From Bdellovibrionales bacterium (GTDB lineage: Bacteria > Bdellovibrionota > Bdellovibrionia > Bdellovibrionales > JAGQZY01), in the NCBI GenBank assembly GCA_964230645.1, contig CAXRHT010000002.1, positions 320,001-384,000 of the forward strand: DNA of 64,000 nucleotides. The letters are read 5' to 3'. Each line of letters begins with the position of its first letter. Position 1 is the stretch's first letter. The notes below the pieces were generated by a model, which ran no database searches, had not been told where the DNA came from, and saw nothing but the letters and a program-made list of their open reading frames with translations. Shown one piece after another: positions 40,685 through 52,900 of this stretch. The translations under genes and the position numbers were made by a program.

Positions 40685-42946
40685 TTATTTCTTTTTACTT
40701 TTTTGAGCTTGGCTACTCACCGCGCGAACGACTTTTTTCACTTCGTCCTCAGTCATAAAACTTCCCTGCAGCCTTTCAATGGCTTTACCTTGCGCCATAT
40801 AGAGCATATCTCCGTTACCAAGAAGTTTCTCAGCTCCAGGCTGGTCAAGAATAGTGCGAGAATCAATTCCAGAGGAAACCTTAAAGGAAACCCTTGTTGG
40901 GAAGTTGGTTTTGATAAGTCCTGTCACGATGTCACTCGATGGTCTTTGGGTCGCCATGACCATATGGATTCCAGCGGCTCGGGCTTTTTGAGCGATACGA
41001 GTAATTGGTCTTTCCACTTCTTGTCTTTGGGTGAGCATAAGGTCAGCCAACTCATCGATAACAATCACGATGTAGGGCATCTCTTCAAACTTCCAATCAA
41101 TTTTTTTATTCAGACGTCCCTCAACCGATCGTTTAGAACCTTTCTTTACAGCTTGGTTAAAGCTCACAATATTTTTTGACTGCATGTCGGCAAATATTTG
41201 ATAACGCTTATCCATTTCTTTTTCCGCCCACAATAGAAGATTTTTTGCTTCCTCAACATCGGTGATCACTGGCTTAAGTAAATGAGGGATGCCGTTATAA
41301 GGACTTAGCTCAATCATCTTTGGATCGATCATAAGAAAGCGAAGCTCCTTGGGCGATTTATGAAAAATCAAACCTGAGATCAAAGAATTCATAAAAACCG
41401 ATTTCCCTGAACCAGTGGTTCCTGAAACAAGAAGATGAGGCATTTTTGTTAAATCATTGACGTGAGCATTGTTATAAACATCCACTCCAAGAGGAATCGG
41501 TAGTTCAAGACTGCGTTTTTTCATGCATGTTGTAATAAGCTCGGAAAATCTCAGCATGGCCACTTCTTTATTGGGAACCTCAATTCCCACTGTGGTTTTT
41601 CCAGGTATGGGTGTGAGGATACGAATGGCTTTAGCTCCCAGAACCAGGGCGAGATCATCGCTTAAACTCTGAATTTTAGAAAGCTTCATTCCGGCAGCCG
41701 GCTGAAATTCAAACATGGTCAAAGTCACCCCTTGATGGGCGCCAATAATTTTTCCTTTGATGCCAAAACTTTCAAGACGCTCTTTCAAAACCTCACAAAC
41801 TTCGTTGATTTCTTTTTCTGTTTTTGTAGTTTTCTTCTCTGGCTTTTCAAGAAGACAGGTGTCTACTTTCTTATAGCGTTTGGTCCAAGTTTCGATTTCC
41901 ACTTCATCTTCTTGTTGGCTGGTATCCAGATTTTCTACAGAGGCTTTCTCCTCTTTTTCTTCATCAACCTTTTCCTCAGCTGTTTTTTTCTTTCTTGATT
42001 TTGTTTTTTTAGCCTCGGTTTCCGCTATTTTTGAATTGTCCGTTTTTGTTTCCTTTGGCTTCGTCGTCTCAACAGCAACGGGTTGCTCTACTGGTGGTTG
42101 AGCCTGGTCTTGGATCGAAACTTCTTCTTCACTACTTAAATTTCCAGCATTGGGTTGAACGTTCTCTGGCGTGTGAAAATGATCTGTGGTTAGGCGTCCA
42201 CCATAATAAGGACTGGTCGCCCAGTTTTTACGATGAAAGGACTGCACATCCATGTCACGTTTAAATGTAGACTGAGAGCTATTTTGTCCGGAGGAAGCGT
42301 ATTGAGGTTTTTGATCAATAAAATCAATCACCCCTTCACCCCATGACTTCAAGGCTTGTGGTCCTTGCTCTCTGACATTTTTAAAGATCTCTTGGAAAAT
42401 ATCTTTCATCACATAAAAAGAGTGCACGATTTCCATAAAACCGGCCGAAATTCCAATGATTGAAGTGAGGCAAAATAAAATAACAAGAGCTCCGTAAAGA
42501 CCAAAGCTTTGGTAAAGGATGCCTCCGATAACAGAGCCAAACCAACCGCCATAACCGTTTGCAAAAAGGTTTGATACATTCCAGGCGTTGTAAGCTTCAA
42601 GCACAGTTAAAAAACTTGAGATGAGGAGCATTACGGTAAAATAAAGCGCGAAACTTTTAAGGTACATTTTATAACCACGCACGAGATCACGCACGTAAAG
42701 AGCTGTTCCTAAAGTCATATGCCCCATATGAAGCACGAAGATCACAAAGAAAAAATAGGTGTAGCCAAAAGAGCTAAAACCTTTTTGGATCATGGCTGAA
42801 CCTGTGCTTCCAGCGGCGTTAATGAAATTTTGAGGACTCAAGGAAAGATAGAACAATCCGCCCACAGCAATGGAGAGCGAGAAAGTTATAGTCAGCAGAA
42901 ATATGATTTCCTGTAAGCGTGTTTCTAGTCGTGATATCTTCAGCAT
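40685..42946 (-). CDS. ftsK: DNA translocase FtsK/SpoIIIE family, without the C-terminal gamma domain
   Basis: 4-TM N-terminus, PIPGK..VGIEVPN, GTTGSGKS, IDPKM.EL, IDELADLM, ATQRPS, GAEKLLG.GDML. Confidence 0.9.
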   Translation of the reverse strand: MLKISRLETRLQEIIFLLTITFSLSIAVGGLFYLSLSPQNFINAAGSTGSAMIQKGFSSFGYTYFFFVIFVLHMGHMTLGTALYVRDLVRGYKMYLKSFALYFTVMLLISSFLTVLEAYNAWNVSNLFANGYGGWFGSVIGGILYQSFGLYGALVILFCLTSIIGISAGFMEIVHSFYVMKDIFQEIFKNVREQGPQALKSWGEGVIDFIDQKPQYASSGQNSSQSTFKRDMDVQSFHRKNWATSPYYGGRLTTDHFHTPENVQPNAGNLSSEEEVSIQDQAQPPVEQPVAVETTKPKETKTDNSKIAETEAKKTKSRKKKTAEEKVDEEKEEKASVENLDTSQQEDEVEIETWTKRYKKVDTCLLEKPEKKTTKTEKEINEVCEVLKERLESFGIKGKIIGAHQGVTLTMFEFQPAAGMKLSKIQSLSDDLALVLGAKAIRILTPIPGKTTVGIEVPNKEVAMLRFSELITTCMKKRSLELPIPLGVDVYNNAHVNDLTKMPHLLVSGTTGSGKSVFMNSLISGLIFHKSPKELRFLMIDPKMIELSPYNGIPHLLKPVITDVEEAKNLLLWAEKEMDKRYQIFADMQSKNIVSFNQAVKKGSKRSVEGRLNKKIDWKFEEMPYIVIVIDELADLMLTQRQEVERPITRIAQKARAAGIHMVMATQRPSSDIVTGLIKTNFPTRVSFKVSSGIDSRTILDQPGAEKLLGNGDMLYMAQGKAIERLQGSFMTEDEVKKVVRAVSSQAQKSKKK

Positions 42947-43125: not shown

Positions 43126-44439
43126 ATGGTGTCGCGTAGGAAATTTCTAGAAAAATTAATAGGATCTTATGGGGTCACTAGCCTCTTTGCAAGCCCAGCA
43201 ATGGCTCAATTTGTTCCTTTCTCATTTTGGAACAAGTCCAGCCGTGACTTTCGCGTGAAGGTGGGAACTTTCGACATGGGAACATCTCTAGCCGGGACCG
43301 ACTTAAGTATTTCCGGAACTGGTTTTGAACCTAAAGCATTAATTTTTTATCAAAATGGACGTTCCAATAGTACCGACTCGTTCGGAGACGCGGACACAAT
43401 GCTTGGAATGGGGTTTGCCACTTCATCGACCTCCCAATGTTGCATTTTCAACTACCTCGACGACAGAGATGATGACACTGCGACAGCGGCGGGACGATTC
43501 CTACGAGATGATGCTTGTGTTGGATCGGCTTTAGATCGTTCCACTATCGATGGTCTAATGTCACTTAAGTCAATGGACAGTGATGGATTCACCCTCACCG
43601 TTGATGATGCGTTTTCCTCTAACAAAAGATGTCATTATGTTGCCCTTGGAGGAGCCGCGCTCGAGGGGGTCTACCTGGATAGCTTTACCGAACCAAATTC
43701 TATCGGAAGTTTTGATGTCACAGGAGTGCCTTTTCAACCCGACACAGCCGTTTTTCTATCCCAGGGAAATAGCACTGCAAATACCAACGACACGAATGCC
43801 CTTTTTGTTTTTGGAGCGGCTAACGACACAAATCAGTTTCATACGGGATTTTTCTCGAATCACTCTACGGGTCATGTCTCGAGCTATTCCCGAGGAGGTG
43901 AATGCTGGTCCAATTTTTTCAACTCGACCGGAGTAGGAGATTTCTCCTCAAGAATATCTCTGACATCGTTTCTCTCTAATGGGATGCGTTTTAATTGTCA
44001 TGAACGCACGGGCAATCGCTTGATATATTATTTAGCTCTCAAAGGACCTCAAACTCATATTGGAAACTTTCAAAGCCGAACCGACACTAATAATATTACA
44101 GTCACGGGTCATAGTGGAAAACCAAAGGGAGGTTTGTTTTTAAGCCATTGCGCCCCTGAGTCCTCACTCGCTACAACCGACCAAGGATCAAAAATCAGTA
44201 TTGGTGCTGTGGACCAATTTCTTAATCAAACAGTAGTAACCTGCACCGACACCTATAATGACGACCCCAATATCATTGGGTCTTCGGTAGGCTACAATTC
44301 TATTTATAATCAGCTCGATTATACTGGTACGCTACAGGGTTCCATGAGAATCACAAGCCTCGATTCAGCAGGGTTTTCGGCCATTATGAGTGATCCAGAC
44401 CCATCTGCCGTTGATATTTTCTATCTCGTCTTTGGATAG
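43126..44439 (+). CDS. Tat-exported beta-rich protein with three internal repeats
   Basis: MVSRRKFLEK signal, AMA|QFVPFSFW, three repeats of about 130-140 aa. Confidence 0.8.
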   Translation: MVSRRKFLEKLIGSYGVTSLFASPAMAQFVPFSFWNKSSRDFRVKVGTFDMGTSLAGTDLSISGTGFEPKALIFYQNGRSNSTDSFGDADTMLGMGFATSSTSQCCIFNYLDDRDDDTATAAGRFLRDDACVGSALDRSTIDGLMSLKSMDSDGFTLTVDDAFSSNKRCHYVALGGAALEGVYLDSFTEPNSIGSFDVTGVPFQPDTAVFLSQGNSTANTNDTNALFVFGAANDTNQFHTGFFSNHSTGHVSSYSRGGECWSNFFNSTGVGDFSSRISLTSFLSNGMRFNCHERTGNRLIYYLALKGPQTHIGNFQSRTDTNNITVTGHSGKPKGGLFLSHCAPESSLATTDQGSKISIGAVDQFLNQTVVTCTDTYNDDPNIIGSSVGYNSIYNQLDYTGTLQGSMRITSLDSAGFSAIMSDPDPSAVDIFYLVFG

Positions 44440-44488
44440 ATCTTTTCTCCAAGTTTTTTTTACCTCTATTGATTTTTTTCGATACAAC

Positions 44489-45925
44489 CTAGAGACCACT
44501 AAAATAACCAGTCCCAGATCCCCATTTGGTAATAAGATTGCCACTATTATCAGTCACTCCGAACTTTCTACCTATCGCAGTAATAATGTGAGCGTGGTGC
44601 ATTCGATTTCCGATAAAACGTCCTGTGGAAATTTGCCCTCCTAAACTTCCGGCGGTCAGCCGACAAATGCCTCGCCCGTGAGGTTGGGCGTGAGAGGACC
44701 CATTGCCCATTCCCGAGCCAAACATAATCAGACTGTTATCGAGTAAGCTCATGCCATTACTCTCTGGGATAGCGTCCATTTTTTCCATAAGGTAGAGAAA
44801 TTTCCCCACATGCCATTTGTTCATTTCAATTAAACCTCTGCGCCCATCCTCATCAACGGCATGGGAAATGAGGTGAGCATTCGTATTGGCCGCGGGTCCA
44901 TTGTAACCTGGAATTCTGTCTCGGAGTGTATCGCCATTGTGTTCGGCATCAAGCATTTGAGTGGCCACTTGGGTGAGATTGCAAGAAAGTGCTAATACCA
45001 TAAGATCAAGCATATTCTTATTGCCGAGATCCAGATGGACTCTGCCATTACTTTTGATTTCATTTTTAAAAGGGTTGGTGTTGGTAGGCACATCGCACTG
45101 CTGTGAAGGTAGAGGATTCTCAGATTCTGAGGCGATGCCTCGTTCTACCTCTCTTATACTAGTCAAATACTGATCTAATTTTATTTTATCCGAAGCTCCG
45201 AGTTTTGTCTTTAAAGTATTGGCCTGCTGATAAACAAGATCAAGAACACTTTTGCGTGACTCCGCCAAATGGTCAATCTGACTCTCCCCTCCACTGCCCG
45301 GCTGATAATTAGAGAATAACGCCTTAAATACACTCATAGAGTTGGTATGGCGAGGCGCCACCTGGGACTGAGACTTCCAGGAAACATTGGCTAAAAAGAT
45401 ATTGGAGTTACGACCAGCATCTTTACTATTTGGCCCGTAAGTCATTGGGAAGGGGGCCATGATTAGGGGTTTACAACCCAGCTGCTCAGCTATGGCAATG
45501 TCCATTGATTTTGCAGGGTAGCGCAGTTTTAAAGCACCACCCTCATCGTTTCGAGTGTTTCTAACACCGGTCAGAAAACTTGCAATATTCGACCAATGAC
45601 CATCTTGTTTGTTAGCTAAATATTCTGGGTTGTGAAGTCCGTTGAAATAATTCAATTTACTTTGAAAAGAAGCTAGAGGCGAAAGACTTCTTGAAAGCTT
45701 CCAGTCAGAGATTGACTGCCCTGGTGTGCACTCCCAATAATTTTTATTCGTACCCGGCTCCCCGTATTGGAGAGCTCCATTAGAAAACCATAGGGTAATA
45801 AAACGCTTAGGCGCCTCAGCAGCATAGGCTCGACAGGGAATCATGGCTTCAAGAAAGGGTAAAGCAATGGTAATCCCCGCTCCACGCAGGAAAGTTCTTC
45901 GATCGATTTGCCAACTTTTCTTCAT
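44489..45925 (-). CDS. DUF1552 (HXXSHH) family protein, Tat-exported
   Basis: DRRTFLRGAG..IALPFLEAM, SVLD.V, LG.SD..KLDQY..SIRE.E, HLISH, LLDNS..MFGSGM.NG..H. Confidence 0.93.
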   Translation of the reverse strand: MKKSWQIDRRTFLRGAGITIALPFLEAMIPCRAYAAEAPKRFITLWFSNGALQYGEPGTNKNYWECTPGQSISDWKLSRSLSPLASFQSKLNYFNGLHNPEYLANKQDGHWSNIASFLTGVRNTRNDEGGALKLRYPAKSMDIAIAEQLGCKPLIMAPFPMTYGPNSKDAGRNSNIFLANVSWKSQSQVAPRHTNSMSVFKALFSNYQPGSGGESQIDHLAESRKSVLDLVYQQANTLKTKLGASDKIKLDQYLTSIREVERGIASESENPLPSQQCDVPTNTNPFKNEIKSNGRVHLDLGNKNMLDLMVLALSCNLTQVATQMLDAEHNGDTLRDRIPGYNGPAANTNAHLISHAVDEDGRRGLIEMNKWHVGKFLYLMEKMDAIPESNGMSLLDNSLIMFGSGMGNGSSHAQPHGRGICRLTAGSLGGQISTGRFIGNRMHHAHIITAIGRKFGVTDNSGNLITKWGSGTGYFSGL

Positions 45926-48234
45926 TGTGATCCACCTTGTTGTGTTCGAAAGCGAGGACTAGTTACGACTTTAACGATGAGATCAACAATCCCATCATTG
46001 GAAGTCATTTCATTGGAGATGCGTTCCACTTCACACTTATCAGCCGCGACCACTGGTCTACCGAGTCCATAACTTAACATTTTTTCAGTGATACATTTCT
46101 TAAATTTGCCGGCGCCTTTGCTTCCAAGAATATCAATAAGTCCTTCATGATTACTAAAACTTCCCATTTCCGGAAGATCACCATAAGCCTCGACAGCAAA
46201 ATTATTGGAGCTATAGTGTGTACGAAACTGCCCAACCGGATCAAAATGTTCCAGTCCGAAACCAATTGGGTCCATGGAGTAGTGACAACTGGCACACTGT
46301 GGATTGGCGCGATGAACAGCAATCTTCTCTCTTACCGATAGATCCGATACATCAATACTCTCATCGACAAAATCGGCCACATTATCAGGGGCGGCTGGGG
46401 GGGAGTCACAAAGAATATCAGCGAGCACAAAATGCCCTCTTTTTATGGGACTCGTCTCATCCTCCCCAGAGGTAAGGGCTAGAATTCCAGCGTGTGTTAA
46501 CACGCCTTTGCGGCCATCTGCCCCGACAAGACTTACCTTTTGAAACTCCTCTCCATTGACACCACCAATGTTGTAAAGCTCAGAAAGGTTTCCATCGATA
46601 AATGTATAGTTCGCATTTAATATTAGAAGTGGGTTTGCATTGCTTGCAATGAGGTCATAAAAGAATTCGTCCGTCTCCTGTTTCATGGACTGTTTTAAAC
46701 TGTTATCAAAATCATTGATAACAGTTTGGGATTTACTTAAGTCCATAATTTTGTCCGTGTGAAGCCATTGACCACTAAAGTTTTCCGCAAAACGACGGGC
46801 TTTGGCATGGGTGAGCATTCTTCGGGTTTGCTGTGCTAAAACCTGTGGTTCAGTCAAGCGACCGTTTTGCGCAAGGGCAAGTAACTCCTCATCAGGAACA
46901 CTGCTCCAGAGAAAAGTGGAAAGGCGCGTGGCTAGCTCATCACCGGTGAGATCATGTTTATAATTCGGATTGTCAGGCTCAGCCACATTCACAACTTGAT
47001 AAAGAAAGTGGGGAGATAGCAGAATCGACTCTAAGGCCAGTTGAAGAGAGTTTTCAAAAGATAGACCTTTTGATAGCGCTTGATTAGCGATCTGTATATG
47101 AGACTCAATCGGAGCAAAGCTTGCTGGTTTGCGAAAAGCCTTCTCAGCGAACTGCCTCACCTTAGTCTCAATACAAGATAGGTTTTGCGGCCCTGAAGAA
47201 TTAAACTCAAGGGAGACAACATCAACTTGCCGACTCTTATCAGCCAATGCATTCTCTAAATGCAGACCAATCTTATAGTTTTGATTGGCCGAAAATGAGA
47301 AGGGAACTGAGACTTCTTGTGGGGATTCTCCATTGATAACGATCCCTGATGCCACTGTATTGTCATTGATATTTATCTTTAATAATGGCCAAACACCACC
47401 ACTTTGCTTTCCACTGGCCTTAACTTTTAACTGATTATAATTTCTGTTTAATGCGGATCCTGGAACTTCAAACACCAACCAACTGGCTTGGTCTTGAGCT
47501 TTTGTTACAGGCTTAATGTTATTGCCATTTTCAAAGAGGTAGACATAGGGGGCAGACTTACTAACAAGGGTGCCTTGATTCGAGCTTCCACAATTAAGGA
47601 GAGGGCTTGAAGGCGCATTAAGGCTTCGCTGAATAGAAGCACCTGAAAACTCAAGAAGAGTCTGCGCTAGATCCGGAGTGAACAGTTGGTACTCTCCGTG
47701 AGTTTTAAAGCCATCAGGGGCTGCACCGTCGGCGGGAAAATTAATATCGGGCAATTCAGAAAGTTCAAGAAGATCTTTGACAGCTAACTGGTACTCCTTT
47801 GAATTAAAACGCCTTAAGGTAACAGGACTAGAAGTTTTATTGGTGCACTGCCCTCCTCCAAGTCCCGCCCATTTTTTTAAAGCCAAGACATCACAGTCCG
47901 AGACTCTTTCCATAGGAGGCGGAGGCATTGGAAGGGATTGACTTTCCATTCGCTCCACAATTTTTCCAAAGGTATCAAGATTATTTTTAGCAAAAGCCTC
48001 GGATTCAAAATCGAGAAGATTAAGACCGCCGGATGGATTTTCAGCTCCATGGCACCCCACACAGTTAGATAGAATCGGCCTAACATGAGTTTTAAAATCG
48101 ATTACCTCGGGATGGCCGCAAACACCAAGGCTATTAGCACCCAACTCTGCACTGGTGTCTTTTTGAAAACCAGGACCACAGGACTGATAAAGAAGAATGG
48201 CAGGAATTATTATAAAAAGCCATCGTAATGCCAA
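45922..48234 (-). CDS. DUF1592-family lipoprotein with N-terminal cytochrome c and DUF1587/1595/1592/1588/1585-type domains
   Basis: YQSC signal; CVGCH...MPPP; RRFN..EY; LSPHFLY; ATRLS.FLWSS.PD.EL; F.GQWL; TSPIKRG; CASCH..MDP.GF.LE.FD..G; YGLGR. Confidence 0.93.
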   Translation of the reverse strand: MALRWLFIIIPAILLYQSCGPGFQKDTSAELGANSLGVCGHPEVIDFKTHVRPILSNCVGCHGAENPSGGLNLLDFESEAFAKNNLDTFGKIVERMESQSLPMPPPPMERVSDCDVLALKKWAGLGGGQCTNKTSSPVTLRRFNSKEYQLAVKDLLELSELPDINFPADGAAPDGFKTHGEYQLFTPDLAQTLLEFSGASIQRSLNAPSSPLLNCGSSNQGTLVSKSAPYVYLFENGNNIKPVTKAQDQASWLVFEVPGSALNRNYNQLKVKASGKQSGGVWPLLKININDNTVASGIVINGESPQEVSVPFSFSANQNYKIGLHLENALADKSRQVDVVSLEFNSSGPQNLSCIETKVRQFAEKAFRKPASFAPIESHIQIANQALSKGLSFENSLQLALESILLSPHFLYQVVNVAEPDNPNYKHDLTGDELATRLSTFLWSSVPDEELLALAQNGRLTEPQVLAQQTRRMLTHAKARRFAENFSGQWLHTDKIMDLSKSQTVINDFDNSLKQSMKQETDEFFYDLIASNANPLLILNANYTFIDGNLSELYNIGGVNGEEFQKVSLVGADGRKGVLTHAGILALTSGEDETSPIKRGHFVLADILCDSPPAAPDNVADFVDESIDVSDLSVREKIAVHRANPQCASCHYSMDPIGFGLEHFDPVGQFRTHYSSNNFAVEAYGDLPEMGSFSNHEGLIDILGSKGAGKFKKCITEKMLSYGLGRPVVAADKCEVERISNEMTSNDGIVDLIVKVVTSPRFRTQQGGSQ

Positions 48235-48494
48235 GATTTCACCCCACCTTTAGAGCCCAAACTTAAACTCTTTTCGTCTTGTGTCTAGTATACAACACCC
48301 ATGCTAAAAATTAATGGGTTGTCTAGAATTGAGATCTAGAAATGTCCACTAAAAAGCATTCGAGGCAAGAGAGTCTTTTATTTTTAATCTGGGAGTTTTT
48401 TTCAGATTAACGAGTAAAATATTTCGGCCATGTTTTGTACATGGGAAGATAAAATCCCACTTAGACGGGACCCATAATTTTGAAATTTTCCAAT

Positions 48495-48523
48495 AAAAAA
48501 AGCCCTCAAAAAAAGAGGGCTTT
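48495..48523 (-). terminator. Intrinsic terminator
   Basis: AAAAAAAGCCCTC..GAGGGCTTT. Confidence 0.75.
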
Positions 48524-48556
48524 AAATAAAAAATTAGCCTGCGAAAGCAACCAACT

Positions 48557-49111
48557 TTATCCTTGCTCGATATGACCTAAAGAAACCATTTCGCCATCAA
48601 CAAAGTCGACCTGAAAACGAACTTGACCACTGAGGATAAGGGCGGCTGGCTCATTGTAGCCTCCAAGCTCTAGTGACTCTACCCAAAGGACGACGGCACA
48701 AGTCACTCCTGGCTCCATAACACTGGTGTAGTTTGCGTTTTCACAAGCTAGAAAATGAGTCTTAATTGTAAACTCTTTTCCCTCAGCAATCTGTGGTAGG
48801 GCTACATCGCGACCATAAGTTCCAACGTATTGAGCCACTTGGTGAATCAGTTGAGCTTGCTCACTGGGACTCATGTTTTGAGCCTTAGGAACAAAGCTCT
48901 TTACGTCCATAGTCGCATTGGTTTTTTCCTCAGAGAGAGTGGTGAAGACGAAATCAGGGTACTGAGTTTTATAAAGTTCGGTAACGCGGGAAATATCCAT
49001 TTTTTGGAATTTTTCAATGTACTGAGCCGTCTCACTGATGCTCAAGGGTGAGTTGGCCTGAGCGCCTACTGCGAACAATAAAACGACTAAAGAAAATAGG
49101 GTCTTTTTCAT
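48557..49111 (-). CDS. Secreted hypothetical protein
   Basis: AAGGA RBS; signal ending AQA. Confidence 0.85.
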   Translation of the reverse strand: MKKTLFSLVVLLFAVGAQANSPLSISETAQYIEKFQKMDISRVTELYKTQYPDFVFTTLSEEKTNATMDVKSFVPKAQNMSPSEQAQLIHQVAQYVGTYGRDVALPQIAEGKEFTIKTHFLACENANYTSVMEPGVTCAVVLWVESLELGGYNEPAALILSGQVRFQVDFVDGEMVSLGHIEQG

Positions 49112-49189
49112 ATTAAATCCTTTGTTTGTTGTTAAGTGGGTTTAAGTTTTGCAGGCAAACTGTCTCATTTTGGGGCATCTGTCAGGCTA

Positions 49190-49211
49190 TTTTTTTACTT
49201 TAGTAAAAAAA
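49190..49211. promoter_or_regulatory. Putative TetR operator palindrome
   Basis: TTTTTTTACT-TT-AGTAAAAAAA immediately upstream of the TetR gene. Confidence 0.5.
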
Positions 49212-49239
49212 ACATTTATATTAGTTAAAAAGGAAAAAA

Positions 49240-49827
49240 GTGGATAATCTTTTCATTCAGGACTCAGCCAAACAACTTATTCTCTCAGCCGCTTTGAAAT
49301 TTCTATACGAAAATCCGTCGGATCAATTGAGTCTAGCCTCCATAGCCCGCACGGCTAAAACTTCTAAACCACGAGTGGCCTATCATTTTAAAAATGTGAA
49401 TGAGGTATTTATTGAACTCTCTATGGCTTGGGCGAAAAGTGGTAAGTTTTTTACAGACCAATACCTGGGAAAACACCTTGGCTCGAGTCCCCATGAAATT
49501 ATAATTTTGATCGGTGATGCCACCTTTGAATGGCAAAAAAATAACCCGAAAATTGCTCACATCACTCCCCTGCTAATTCATCTGTCAAAAGTGAACGGGG
49601 AGATCCGTGTGATTATGGATCAAGCGATGGTAAAAGGTGTCGGTCGGATCGAGGACTTATTAAAAAAAGAAGGGAAATTTCCTAAAAAAGAAATGAGTAC
49701 AAGAGCCTTTAGTCTTCACAATACTATTATTGGAAGTTTTCTAGCTTCTCAAATATTGACAGAAAAAGGCCGCGCCGAGCAGAGAAAAAGACTTAATAAA
49801 TCTCTAATACTTCAGCTAAAGGTTTAA
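49240..49827 (+). CDS. TetR/AcrR family regulator
   Basis: ILSAA..F......SL..IA..A..SK..V.YHF. Confidence 0.88.
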   Translation: MDNLFIQDSAKQLILSAALKFLYENPSDQLSLASIARTAKTSKPRVAYHFKNVNEVFIELSMAWAKSGKFFTDQYLGKHLGSSPHEIIILIGDATFEWQKNNPKIAHITPLLIHLSKVNGEIRVIMDQAMVKGVGRIEDLLKKEGKFPKKEMSTRAFSLHNTIIGSFLASQILTEKGRAEQRKRLNKSLILQLKV

Positions 49828-50096
49828 GTGATTTTTAGGCTGCGAAACTCTTCATGGCGGTCCATGAAGTCGGCAACGTAGGAACAACTGGGATAAACTT
49901 TTTTTCCCGTTGATTTGGCGAATTCAAGAGCGGCTTGGGCGAGCTTACCGGCGATCCCCTGGCCCCTTTGCTTTCTCGGCACATAAGTTTGGAAGATTTC
50001 TAATTTATCTTCCCCTAAATCTCTGTATTTTAAAAAAGCTAAATCTTGGCCAAACTTTAAAAAGAATTTATTTTTTTCCGAATTGTGCTTAATCAT
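49824..50096 (-). CDS. GNAT N-acetyltransferase (YjdJ-like)
   Basis: TYVP...RGQGIA..L; PSCSYV. Confidence 0.9.
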   Translation of the reverse strand: MIKHNSEKNKFFLKFGQDLAFLKYRDLGEDKLEIFQTYVPRKQRGQGIAGKLAQAALEFAKSTGKKVYPSCSYVADFMDRHEEFRSLKIT

Positions 50097-50251
50097 CCAT
50101 CCTTCCTGGGAAAAGTATTATGTTACGCCTGAAAATAGACTAAATAATAAGGTCAAACCTTCTATTAAACATAAACAGGAATTAAAGAAATTGTGTAGGA
50201 AAATACTGATATTACCACCTTCTCGAATAGAATAAGCACTGAGTAGTAATA

Positions 50252-51070
50252 TTAGTAGTAGCGCGGCATTTCGATACTATTCGGATTCTGAGAACCAGAG
50301 CGCATAAAAGTGTCCATGGGAGAATTAGGATTAGCGAGCATATTATTGAGACCGCCCATCCAACCGTTAACAAAGTTGAGCATTCCAGCCTGGTTGTCTC
50401 CTGAGATCATTTCAAAAGCCAATTGCATCTCTTGGCGTCGGTTGCGCATATAATTCGTACTGGGCTCCTCGGCGTCTTCAGAAAAAAGGCGATACTCTGT
50501 CGTTTCGAAAGAGTCGCTAAAATCCACTCGGTTAGCGGCATTAGCCTCATCATCTTCCTCTTCTTGATCTTCACCCACTCCACCCCAGTCGCCTGTGTTA
50601 GTATCTTCAGGAACATGGAAAGTACGAGGCTCTGGCGCTTCATAACTTTGCTCACCGAGAGGCGAAACCGTCGTTTCTGAGGCAAAACTTCTAAGGCTCT
50701 GGCTGATTTTTGCTTGTTTGTTTTTAAGTCTAAGACCAAATTTAGTTAGTACGGCTTTTTTAAATATATTGGAGTGTTTCACCTCTTGTTCGGAAAAGGC
50801 GATTCCGTTGAGTCTAATATAAACATCTTCTGTACCAACAAAATCAAAACGCAGATATACGCCTTTGTAGCGAAAGGCTAAGGATTGCCCTTGGGCTTTG
50901 ATGTCAGTGATCGGGACTCCTTTTTCAGCCGCACTCATTTGCTTGGCATAAGAAGGGTTGAATCGACTCATAAACTCGAAAGCTGACATCTTCTTCCCTT
51001 CACTTCGCGCTGTGAAAGCAGAAAGTCCAAGGAACATTAAAATGATAAAAACAACTCTAAACTTCTTCAT
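50252..51070 (-). CDS. Secreted hypothetical protein with acidic tract
   Basis: GGAG RBS before MKKFRVV; signal peptide. Confidence 0.8.
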   Translation of the reverse strand: MKKFRVVFIILMFLGLSAFTARSEGKKMSAFEFMSRFNPSYAKQMSAAEKGVPITDIKAQGQSLAFRYKGVYLRFDFVGTEDVYIRLNGIAFSEQEVKHSNIFKKAVLTKFGLRLKNKQAKISQSLRSFASETTVSPLGEQSYEAPEPRTFHVPEDTNTGDWGGVGEDQEEEDDEANAANRVDFSDSFETTEYRLFSEDAEEPSTNYMRNRRQEMQLAFEMISGDNQAGMLNFVNGWMGGLNNMLANPNSPMDTFMRSGSQNPNSIEMPRYY

Positions 51071-51091
51071 AGTGTCTCCACCCTTTTGAAG

Positions 51092-51107
51092 AGCAAAAAC
51101 AAGACCA
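51092..51107 (-). promoter_or_regulatory. Possible sigma54 promoter
   Basis: Minus-strand TGGTCTTGTTTTTGCT (GG-N10-GC) upstream of the RBS. Confidence 0.35.
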
Positions 51108-51331
51108 CTAAGAATCAATTTATTTCGTTATGAGACACCTGGAAGCCCCTTAATCTCTCGATGAGACAATTTGCGGCAGTCCTTTGTAGTTTTTATACAC
51201 GCTACGCCTTGGGCCTGTTCCTAAAGATTTAAGTCATCACCTCGTTCAAGAATGCAACAATCATGCTCCCAAGTTGAGCAAGATTTGGAATTAAATGGCG
51301 TTCTCATTAAGAGGGTGATAGCCTAATCGTA

Positions 51332-52900
51332 ATGAAAATTCAGCGCGAGGGCTCGCAAACAGTGAAACTGGGCACAGTTGCGCCCTTGTGGATAGCCTTA
51401 TTGGCACTCTCTCTTGTACTAGTAGTTTCAAGTGCTAAAGCGCAATTCATTCCCTTTTCCATGTGGCAACAACAAGACACTCAGACCAATGTCACTTGGC
51501 CTGATTTTCTTGGTTACAGCGAAAGCAAAACTTTTTCCGATATCTCTACGAGTATTTCGGTGGAACTCTCAGCTTCCTACAATGTCGGCACACCAACTAT
51601 CGAATTTCAAAAAAACTCCGAAGCTTGGACAGCTTTTACCCCGGGCTCACCCGCCACTGAAAATTTTAACGTTGACGACACCCTAAGATTTCGAGTGGTG
51701 GGCAATAAATTTGACTCAGCTGATATCACTGTCACGAACACCACAACAGGCAGTGCTGTTATCGACACCCTACAGGGCTCTTCGTTTTCTGGTTTTCAGA
51801 TGGAGGTTGTGACAAGTAATTCGGGAGTGAGCGGAAGCAATCAATTCCAACTGCCTCTGGTCAGTGGCGCCACCTATAATTTTGAAGTGGATTGGGGCGA
51901 TGGCAGTCACGATGTGATCACAGCCTTTAATGATCCTGAAGCTCTTCACACCTACCCTTCTTCTGGTGCTTACACCATAAATATCCGTGGCACTCTGGAG
52001 CGTTTGTACTTTAATAATGGAGGGGATGCCGCAAAACTTACCGACATTAGCTCATGGGGTGAGATTTCTTGGTCGAGTATGGACAGCGCTTTTTACGGCT
52101 GCAGTAACCTTAATGTCACCGCCTCCGACGCGCCTGATTTATCCTCTGTGACCGAGCTTTCAAGTATGTTTTGGGGAGCGACCTCCCTGGTTGGAACCGC
52201 AGCCTTTAATACTTGGAACACCTCAAACGTTACTGATTTCCAGGATTTGTTTCGTGAAGCCAGTTCCTTCAATCAAAATATCGGTTCATGGGATATGTCG
52301 AGTACTGTTCATGCCCACGGCATGTTTCGTGAGGCCACTTCTTTCAACCAAGATATTGGAGGCTGGACCTTTTCAACCGATCTGCGAGGAACTGGTGAGA
52401 TGTTCAGAGGTGCCACAGCCTTCAACCAAAACATAAACGCTTGGAATGTCGCCGATGCGACGAATATGAATCAAATGTTTCGAGACGCTGTTTCGTTTAA
52501 TCAACCCCTAAGCTCCTGGGACGTTTCCAGAAATCAACGCTTTAACTATATGTTCAAAGGCGCTACAAACTTTAATCAAGACATTAGCTCCTGGAACACT
52601 TCGAGCGCGATCACTTTTGAAAATATGTTTCAAGATGCCGTCAATTTTAACCAGAATATCGGCTCTTGGGACACCTCTTTAGTAGAAAACATGAAACAGG
52701 TTTTTGATGGTGCCTCAGCCTTCAATCAACCCATAGGAGGCTGGAATACAGCCTTGGTCACCACTATGGAACGAATGTTCCGTGATGCTTCCGTTTTCAA
52801 TGCCGACTGTAGTGGCTGGAACACTACTAATGTCACGAACTCGACGGATTTCGACCAGAATGCCTCAGCATGGCAGGCAGGAAATAAACCCACCTTCTAA
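51332..52900 (+). CDS. BspA-type / DUF285 repeat surface protein with PKD-like domain
   Basis: VDWGDG; about nine 25-aa repeats MF..A..FNQ.I..W.TS; signal then AQFIPFSMW. Confidence 0.9.
   Translation: MKIQREGSQTVKLGTVAPLWIALLALSLVLVVSSAKAQFIPFSMWQQQDTQTNVTWPDFLGYSESKTFSDISTSISVELSASYNVGTPTIEFQKNSEAWTAFTPGSPATENFNVDDTLRFRVVGNKFDSADITVTNTTTGSAVIDTLQGSSFSGFQMEVVTSNSGVSGSNQFQLPLVSGATYNFEVDWGDGSHDVITAFNDPEALHTYPSSGAYTINIRGTLERLYFNNGGDAAKLTDISSWGEISWSSMDSAFYGCSNLNVTASDAPDLSSVTELSSMFWGATSLVGTAAFNTWNTSNVTDFQDLFREASSFNQNIGSWDMSSTVHAHGMFREATSFNQDIGGWTFSTDLRGTGEMFRGATAFNQNINAWNVADATNMNQMFRDAVSFNQPLSSWDVSRNQRFNYMFKGATNFNQDISSWNTSSAITFENMFQDAVNFNQNIGSWDTSLVENMKQVFDGASAFNQPIGGWNTALVTTMERMFRDASVFNADCSGWNTTNVTNSTDFDQNASAWQAGNKPTF

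Follow-up and report, generated by a model that had tools for sequence, protein, structure and literature searches.

Why should two exported proteins that differ both in body and in signal peptide begin, once matured, with nearly the same eight residues? The question is raised by a 64,000-nucleotide stretch of a Bdellovibrionales genome (GenBank assembly GCA_964230645.1, contig CAXRHT010000002.1, positions 320,001 to 384,000; hereafter the window), in which the open reading frames (ORFs) at 43126..44439 and 51332..52900 encode QFVPFSFW and QFIPFSMW directly after their signal peptides. The answer that we consider fairly likely is that this octapeptide (the tag) is a docking peptide, which would plug separately exported binding proteins onto the C-terminal tip domain, here called T, of some mosaic adhesive trimer (MAT) fibres. 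Gene order, co-occurrence and homologies were computed, and from these we infer binding, display and prey recognition. The breadth of prey recognition by Bdellovibrio-type predators is a long-standing question, the published answer to which is a large number of fibres whose tips are fused to them. If true, a plug-in system would add a second layer of prey recognition, give a role to the dozens of orphan lectin-like and propeller proteins in each genome and account for a MAT tip to which no function has been assigned, and an eight-residue surface-display tag would be a useful tool.

In the first protein (head 1), a predicted twin-arginine (Tat) signal peptide (43126..43206, + strand; MVSRRKFL...PAMA, with the final Ala codon at 43204) precedes the tag QFVPFSFW (43207..43230, +), which continues with NK into a three-repeat all-beta body (43231..44439, +). 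The second protein (head 2) starts with a predicted Sec signal peptide (51332..51442, +), a hydrophobic stretch ending in SSAKA (Ala codon at 51440), followed by the tag QFIPFSMW (51443..51466, +), by QQ and by a body made of a spacer, a PKD-like domain and DUF285 repeats (51467..52900, +). Both cleavage sites were predicted by eye from A-x-A and place the tag at mature +1; the tag profile described below matches the two tags at E 7.4e-10 and 3.5e-9, respectively, each sequence being itself in the profile. The initial annotation had described an octapeptide shared behind unlike signals and before unlike bodies. The DNA confirms both tags, with the common form Q-F-[IV]-P-F-S-[FM]-W; the predicted signals are indeed of the Tat and the Sec type, and the body of head 1 has no Pfam family, whereas that of head 2 shows DUF285 repeats along with a weak, sub-threshold match to PKD. 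Four of the five degenerate codons common to both tags differ synonymously in the matched DNA, which points to selection on the peptide and not to a recent DNA copy.

A six-frame matrix scan of the source genome (G000; 3.78 Mb, 3 contigs) revealed five tagged ORFs at 28.5-35.9 bits, which are also the seeds of the matrix, with the next-best match at 17.2 bits. A 16S rRNA search of the assembly found no match. The initial annotation had considered that the motif might be confined to the two window proteins; three further tagged proteins in the same genome show that it is not. The strict motif has a chance expectation of 0.00005 in the long ORFs of this genome. A looser pattern, [IVM]PF[SGA][FM][WFM], has 5 matches in 3218 ORFs of at least 150 residues (1.17 million residues), all within the first 60 residues (expected 0.09) and each directly after a predicted signal peptide, an enrichment that is flattered because the pattern was derived from those same five sequences. 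When a broad regular expression was applied to the genome, 42 candidates were obtained, and only the five known tags were accepted.

Beyond the source genome, an exact DNA pattern for QF[IVM]PFxFW over 185,579 genomes yielded 88 stretches, 7 of which lie at the signal-cleaved N-terminus of a long ORF; the 6 of these with a named source all belong to Bdellovibrionales or Bdellovibrionaceae. A looser pattern gave 46 matches in 384 Bdellovibrionales genomes versus 10 for a reversed control; mature +1 is the position of 28 of these 46, which come from 15 genomes. A tag profile comprising the signal end and the tag (threshold E under 1e-3) was positive in 39 of the 384 genomes of the order, with up to 21 copies in one, and all 15 of the new profile loci that were inspected are true tags; genome G101 has at least 21 profile matches (21 of 52 candidates scored, 9 inspected by eye) and genome G106 has 10. 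The profile was found in none of 164 genomes from other families of the phylum (f14-f35), and an exact-tag DNA scan of viral contigs placed none of 47 matches at a signal-cleaved N-terminus. In 31 aligned tags, the rows of which were chosen by pattern, Q1 occurs in 29, P4 in 31, F5 in 30, F7 in 28 and W8 in 29, and Lys or Arg follows the octamer in 21. The tag sits behind both Sec and Tat signals, with the final aromatic residue usually at about +8. The octapeptide as initially defined is present in both window proteins, but the real tag is broader: genes behind T fibres start with variants such as FRTTIGFW, QYNLGAFW, QFGRFSFW and GGTIPFGFF, in which there is usually still an aromatic residue close to +8, with a basic or polar residue after it. 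As a side observation, genes resembling helix-turn-helix regulators are often found near tagged genes, as at four loci of G101 (L213, L214, L215 and L218) and at L001:14030-14506 and L002:16647-17030.

Regarding the partner of the tag, T was first seen in a survey of 26 tag loci, at two fibre genes that directly precede tagged genes (44% identity between the two copies). It is a C-terminal domain of about 105-110 residues, non-S74 and XD1-like, and is present in 177 of the 384 genomes. With a tag-score matrix built from 28 tags, a locus passing at a score of 0 or more, the downstream gene passed in 33 of 70 T loci and in none of 25 loci with S74-ending fibres (30 sampled, 5 unparsed; Fisher 3.6e-6, such p-values being overstated, to the cost of the docking reading, because the genomes and loci are kin). 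Without three seed loci, 30 of 67 T loci pass. Judged by eye, tagged genes stand behind 21 of the 30 best T matches and 27 of the 40 lower-ranked ones, 16 of these 40 also passing the matrix. T occurs in 25 of 25 genomes with a tag at E up to 1.4e-5 and in 30 of 39 at E under 1e-3, and, after removal of the genomes that seeded the T model, in 19 of 19 and 23 of 32 tag genomes. The S74 fibre end, tried as a partner of the tag, was rejected on the 25 loci above. No ordinary neighbour, including a transporter, recurs among the 26 tag loci (transporters elsewhere in the genomes were not sought).

Several observations weigh against docking on T. The tag score is not reached at 37 of the 70 T loci, including all three T fibres of the source genome, and 9 of the 39 tag genomes have no T match; most of these are fragmented, but one (G323) is 99% complete. 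As the tag (E under 1e-3) is found in only 39 genomes versus 177 for T, the model needs divergent tags or self-sufficient tips. In the source genome, none of the five tagged genes adjoins a fibre gene, contrary to an order of head behind fibre. Across 33 adjacent pairs, more similar tips do not go with more similar tags (rho -0.04, permutation p 0.70), and the same holds for unrelated bodies only (-0.06, p 0.81); this fits a promiscuous socket and equally fits no interaction. Passages of PMC8825819 describe XD1 as a spacer without on-axis binding of trimeric partners, and report glycan binding by this fold in StcE and CpaA. Two further results concern the pairing of tip and tag. IPF tags are shared, as noticed after the fact, by those seven tip pairs that are most alike and have unrelated bodies. 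A complex prediction combining three copies of a tip of the source genome (L233) with the first 30 mature residues of head 1 scored 0.05 and 0.09 (mark 0.32), which speaks neither for nor against docking, in a job for which controls were not folded and which is unlike the calibration of the tool.

If the tag docks on T, the head would be exported by Sec, or in folded form by Tat, and signal peptidase I would free the tag as the N-terminus, where Gln at +1 may cyclise to pyroglutamate. Because T ends its chain, the trimer would expose one face, and the aromatic residues of the tag would bind this distal (outer) face; the head would then be displayed at the fibre end and would recognise prey or surfaces. 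Adjacent fibre and head genes would represent the ancestral arrangement, and orphan heads would act in trans as an exchangeable pool (five tags and three T fibres in the source genome, at least 21 profile matches and five T in G101). Docking has phage precedents in gp38 on gp37 and in the branching domain and docking peptide of KP32. For a wider proposal we see about an even chance: in a combinatorial adhesin system of predatory Bdellovibrionales, a scattered pool of Sec- or Tat-exported heads, up to 20 or more in number, would compete via an eight-residue plug for a few fibres with XD1-like universal sockets, prey range could be reset by expression and not by recombination, and environmental phage tail fibres would very commonly contain the same socket and plug, as a module that so far has no name.

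The initial annotation had proposed a docking or sorting tag. Its docking part is well supported by the genetics and has gained T as a candidate partner; the sorting part is weaker, because tagged genes are absent behind the 25 S74-ending fibres scored and because similar N-termini often come after phage tip homologues, proteins that are not exported. It is unlikely that the tag serves to sort its proteins in a second export step, through the outer membrane and perhaps in common with T-type fibres, a role for which the N22 peptide of curli CsgA is an analogy. Such a signal would suit the constant position of the tag at predicted mature +1, its presence on Sec and Tat substrates alike, both of which need a second step, and the wide range of body sizes, yet the link is to the type of tip and not to fibres at large, and no transporter recurs beside the tag loci. 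Quite improbable, too, is that T itself is a glycan-binding adhesin and that the tagged genes are merely co-inherited cassettes, whose common start is a relic of gene shuffling. Although glycan binding by XD1 folds, the overall absence of tip-tag co-variation and the many T fibres without a tagged neighbour are as such an origin would have them, it does not account for upstream signals that are wholly unlike with only eight residues kept, for the synonymous differences between the window tags, or for the retention of the tag in orphan genes.

Partner-free action of the peptide, as a direct membrane anchor or a self-assembly motif, is very improbable. Interfacial membrane anchors have an aromatic-then-basic pattern, and the F/W-rich octamer followed by Lys or Arg in two thirds of the aligned tags (21 of 31) resembles it; such an anchor or motif would leave unexplained why tagged genes stand behind T tips and occur together with T, and why the proline is invariant and the register fixed.

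The source genome encodes eight MAT-like fibres, three ending in S74, three in T and two in cysteine-rich tips. The three T fibres (frames of 2232-3249 residues) resemble other MAT-like fibres in the N-terminal region, and one of the fibre queries used matches solved MAT structures (E 3e-31). The tagged proteins themselves are not fibres: the window proteins are not among the matches listed for three MAT queries in this genome, and their mature chains begin with the tag, not with the MAT N-terminal domain. From the window genes it is about 85 kb to the nearest MAT gene and much farther to the T fibres; the tagged genes of the window are orphan heads far from any fibre.

The model of T (pLDDT 85.6) resembles residues 78-180 of CBA120 TSP4 (Z 6.4, root-mean-square deviation 2.8, 85 aligned), which is below the tool's caution level of Z 8; other middling matches are the Pa223 capsid spike (Z 7.3) and the Solidus tailspike end (Z 6.9), and StcE and CpaA score Z 4.3 and 4.8. 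Foldseek gave E 0.08-0.67, with T4 gp9 and gp10 as weak rows. The T profile matches 2173 cluster representatives. No Pfam family was found for T, sequence searches of the PDB matched neither T nor the phage tip, and a direct sequence search of T in viruses and phages gave nothing usable. In Table S1 of PMC10769870 (Caulton et al. 2024), as far as seen, the tip of Bd0726 (1959 residues) resembles XD1 of CBA120 TSP4; given this entry and the XD1-like fold of T, T is probably the Bd0726-type tip, judging from fold and length. In each of five genomes of genus g18, a single T fibre of 1708-1964 residues stands before a gene that encodes a signal peptide and a variant of the tag. The Bd2133 tip (8OND/8OK3) is not in the sequence or fold match lists of T, an absence that does not exclude likeness. 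Three side observations concern T fibres. In L306 (G111:C1:2387-3800), T is internal and followed by about 170 in-frame Lcl-like residues, and the next gene still has a tag variant. In a T-fibre lineage of genus g1 (L267, L276, L277, L278; G000 C2:1716384-1723082), the same membrane-protein gene, transporter-like by eye, lies downstream, with no tagged gene. A TPR protein, the C-terminus of which looks glycosyltransferase-like by eye, is found repeatedly in the vicinity of tagged genes and immediately downstream of T fibres (L002:8824-9990; L152:2198-3337; L298; L329) and might glycosylate fibres or heads.

Outside the order, the phage parallel is found in homology and gene order. T and the profile of a phage fibre-end domain align with an hhalign probability of 96 (E 4.3e-9), and the fold of T matches 112 viral models at E up to 1e-3. 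At 7 of 21 viral loci with a phage-type tip, which were gathered via one shared word and are not a fair sample, the next gene starts with a short hydrophobic peptide by our own reading (MIPG, MMPPFF, MFGAS and MTFFS types); of the rest, two next genes end in PAFLLFLD (L369, L370), two are cut off and the others show neither. In phage BDU-MI-1, the tip gene overlaps a glycine-rich gene starting MFLPFRPF, and a gene of Vp_R1 starts MLNSFSMN.

Separate-head docking is already known from phages, and its application to MAT fibres appears to be new. In the passages found of PMC10769870, MAT fibres of Bdellovibrio bacteriovorus have tips that are each treated as an adhesin in itself, with no separate head protein, and 'gp38' and 'operon' have no occurrences in its main text; the 2026 review PMC13689555, as far as available, still has fibres bearing their own tips. 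In mostly non-subscription literature, no paper was found that applies separate-head logic to MAT fibres, that treats bd0726/bd0727 in Bdellovibrio, or that concerns Bdellovibrio docking or branching. In the gp37-gp38 system of the T2/T6/S16 type (parts of PMC12032242 and bioRxiv 10.64898/2026.05.12.724579), a separately encoded variable head downstream of the fibre gene is attached by its N-terminus. A similar attachment is proposed here, with the head gene directly behind the fibre in just under half of the T loci and in none of the five cases of the source genome. A folded gp38 attachment domain sits there on an S74-processed end, whereas here an element of about eight residues would meet a non-S74, XD1-like end, export from a cell is by Sec or Tat, and the genes of most heads are remote from fibre genes. 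No folded gp38-type N-terminal domain was found by Pfam in the tagged proteins scanned, which have only about 10 residues in common. Docking of gp38 through aromatic residues, as supposed in the initial annotation, was not borne out, since the passages found in PMC12032242 describe it as electrostatic. In the Klebsiella podophage KP32 (PMC13352976, in part), a T4 gp10-related branching domain binds a short N-terminal peptide (29 residues deleted there) able to carry foreign bodies; that domain lies within its chain, close to the anchor, and connects tailspikes on a virion, in contrast to a C-terminal XD1-like tip on a bacterial fibre, and no sequence similarity between its docking peptide and the tag is shown. 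As for XD1 of CBA120 TSP4, T4 gp9 and gp10, the fold neighbours found for T (gp9, gp10, CpaA, StcE) are those on the XD1 list in PMC8825819, as far as seen, where XD1 is an internal spacer in phage proteins and not a chain end as in T.

The bodies behind the tag are of at least ten kinds, including Kelch, FG-GAP, RCC1, NHL, DUF5122, DUF6242, glycine-rich, Calx-beta, PKD with DUF285, DUF1554, Lcl and several family-less ones, with lengths from about 150 to over 2000 residues. Very large tagged proteins of 1000 to over 2000 residues, several with Calx-beta and RCC1 repeats (L096, L128, L232, L123, L174, L253, L259), indicate that the tag is not confined to small heads. Five tagged proteins contain a glycine-rich domain (PF21722 matches), which we take to be gp38-like. 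The tags of the source genome ride on five different bodies: besides the window proteins, these are a DUF1554-like protein below the cut-off (C1:710891-711586), a twin-arginine protein with RCC1 repeats (C3:688777-689925) and a protein with an Lcl C-terminal domain (C3:694367-695089). Tagged bodies resembling that of head 2 lie directly behind T fibres in genomes G075 and G005. At L208:347-1866 in genome G272, a T fibre is followed by a gene without a visible signal peptide and then by a short twin-arginine tagged protein with TTQV repeats; a similar one occurs in L310, and such proteins are possibly adaptors and not heads.

The body of head 1 consists of three internal repeats (consensus), modelled as all-beta with pLDDT 94, and has no family in Pfam or PHROG; its best fold match in the PDB is unconvincing (TM 0.24). 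None of its 119 other homologues (P0004-P0122, matching window 43207-44436) has the tag, 71 open at once with MA followed by either Ala or a hydrophobic residue, and 2 carry a phage-type tip fused in front, which suggests that the body is a mobile module and that signal peptide and tag were gained in this lineage. Many homologues end in short hydrophobic tails (LLGVG, FFxF and NPLIG types, the LLGVG-like tail in 10 of the 119) in place of an N-terminal tag. Such tails, together with PAFLLFLD after phage tips, might be the docking peptide in a C-terminal form.

Around the window genes, a conserved operon was sought and rejected; the neighbours are FtsK, DUF1552/DUF1592 genes and a cytochrome c. 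The FtsK-like gene (40685-42946, - strand) has a four-helix N-terminus and alpha and motor domains, and the Pfam scan shows no gamma domain. The DUF1552 and DUF1592-type pair (44489-48234, -) adjoins a tagged gene, which may be chance, and similar pairs lie beside tagged genes in two other genomes (L217:5435-8920; L097:2219-5589).

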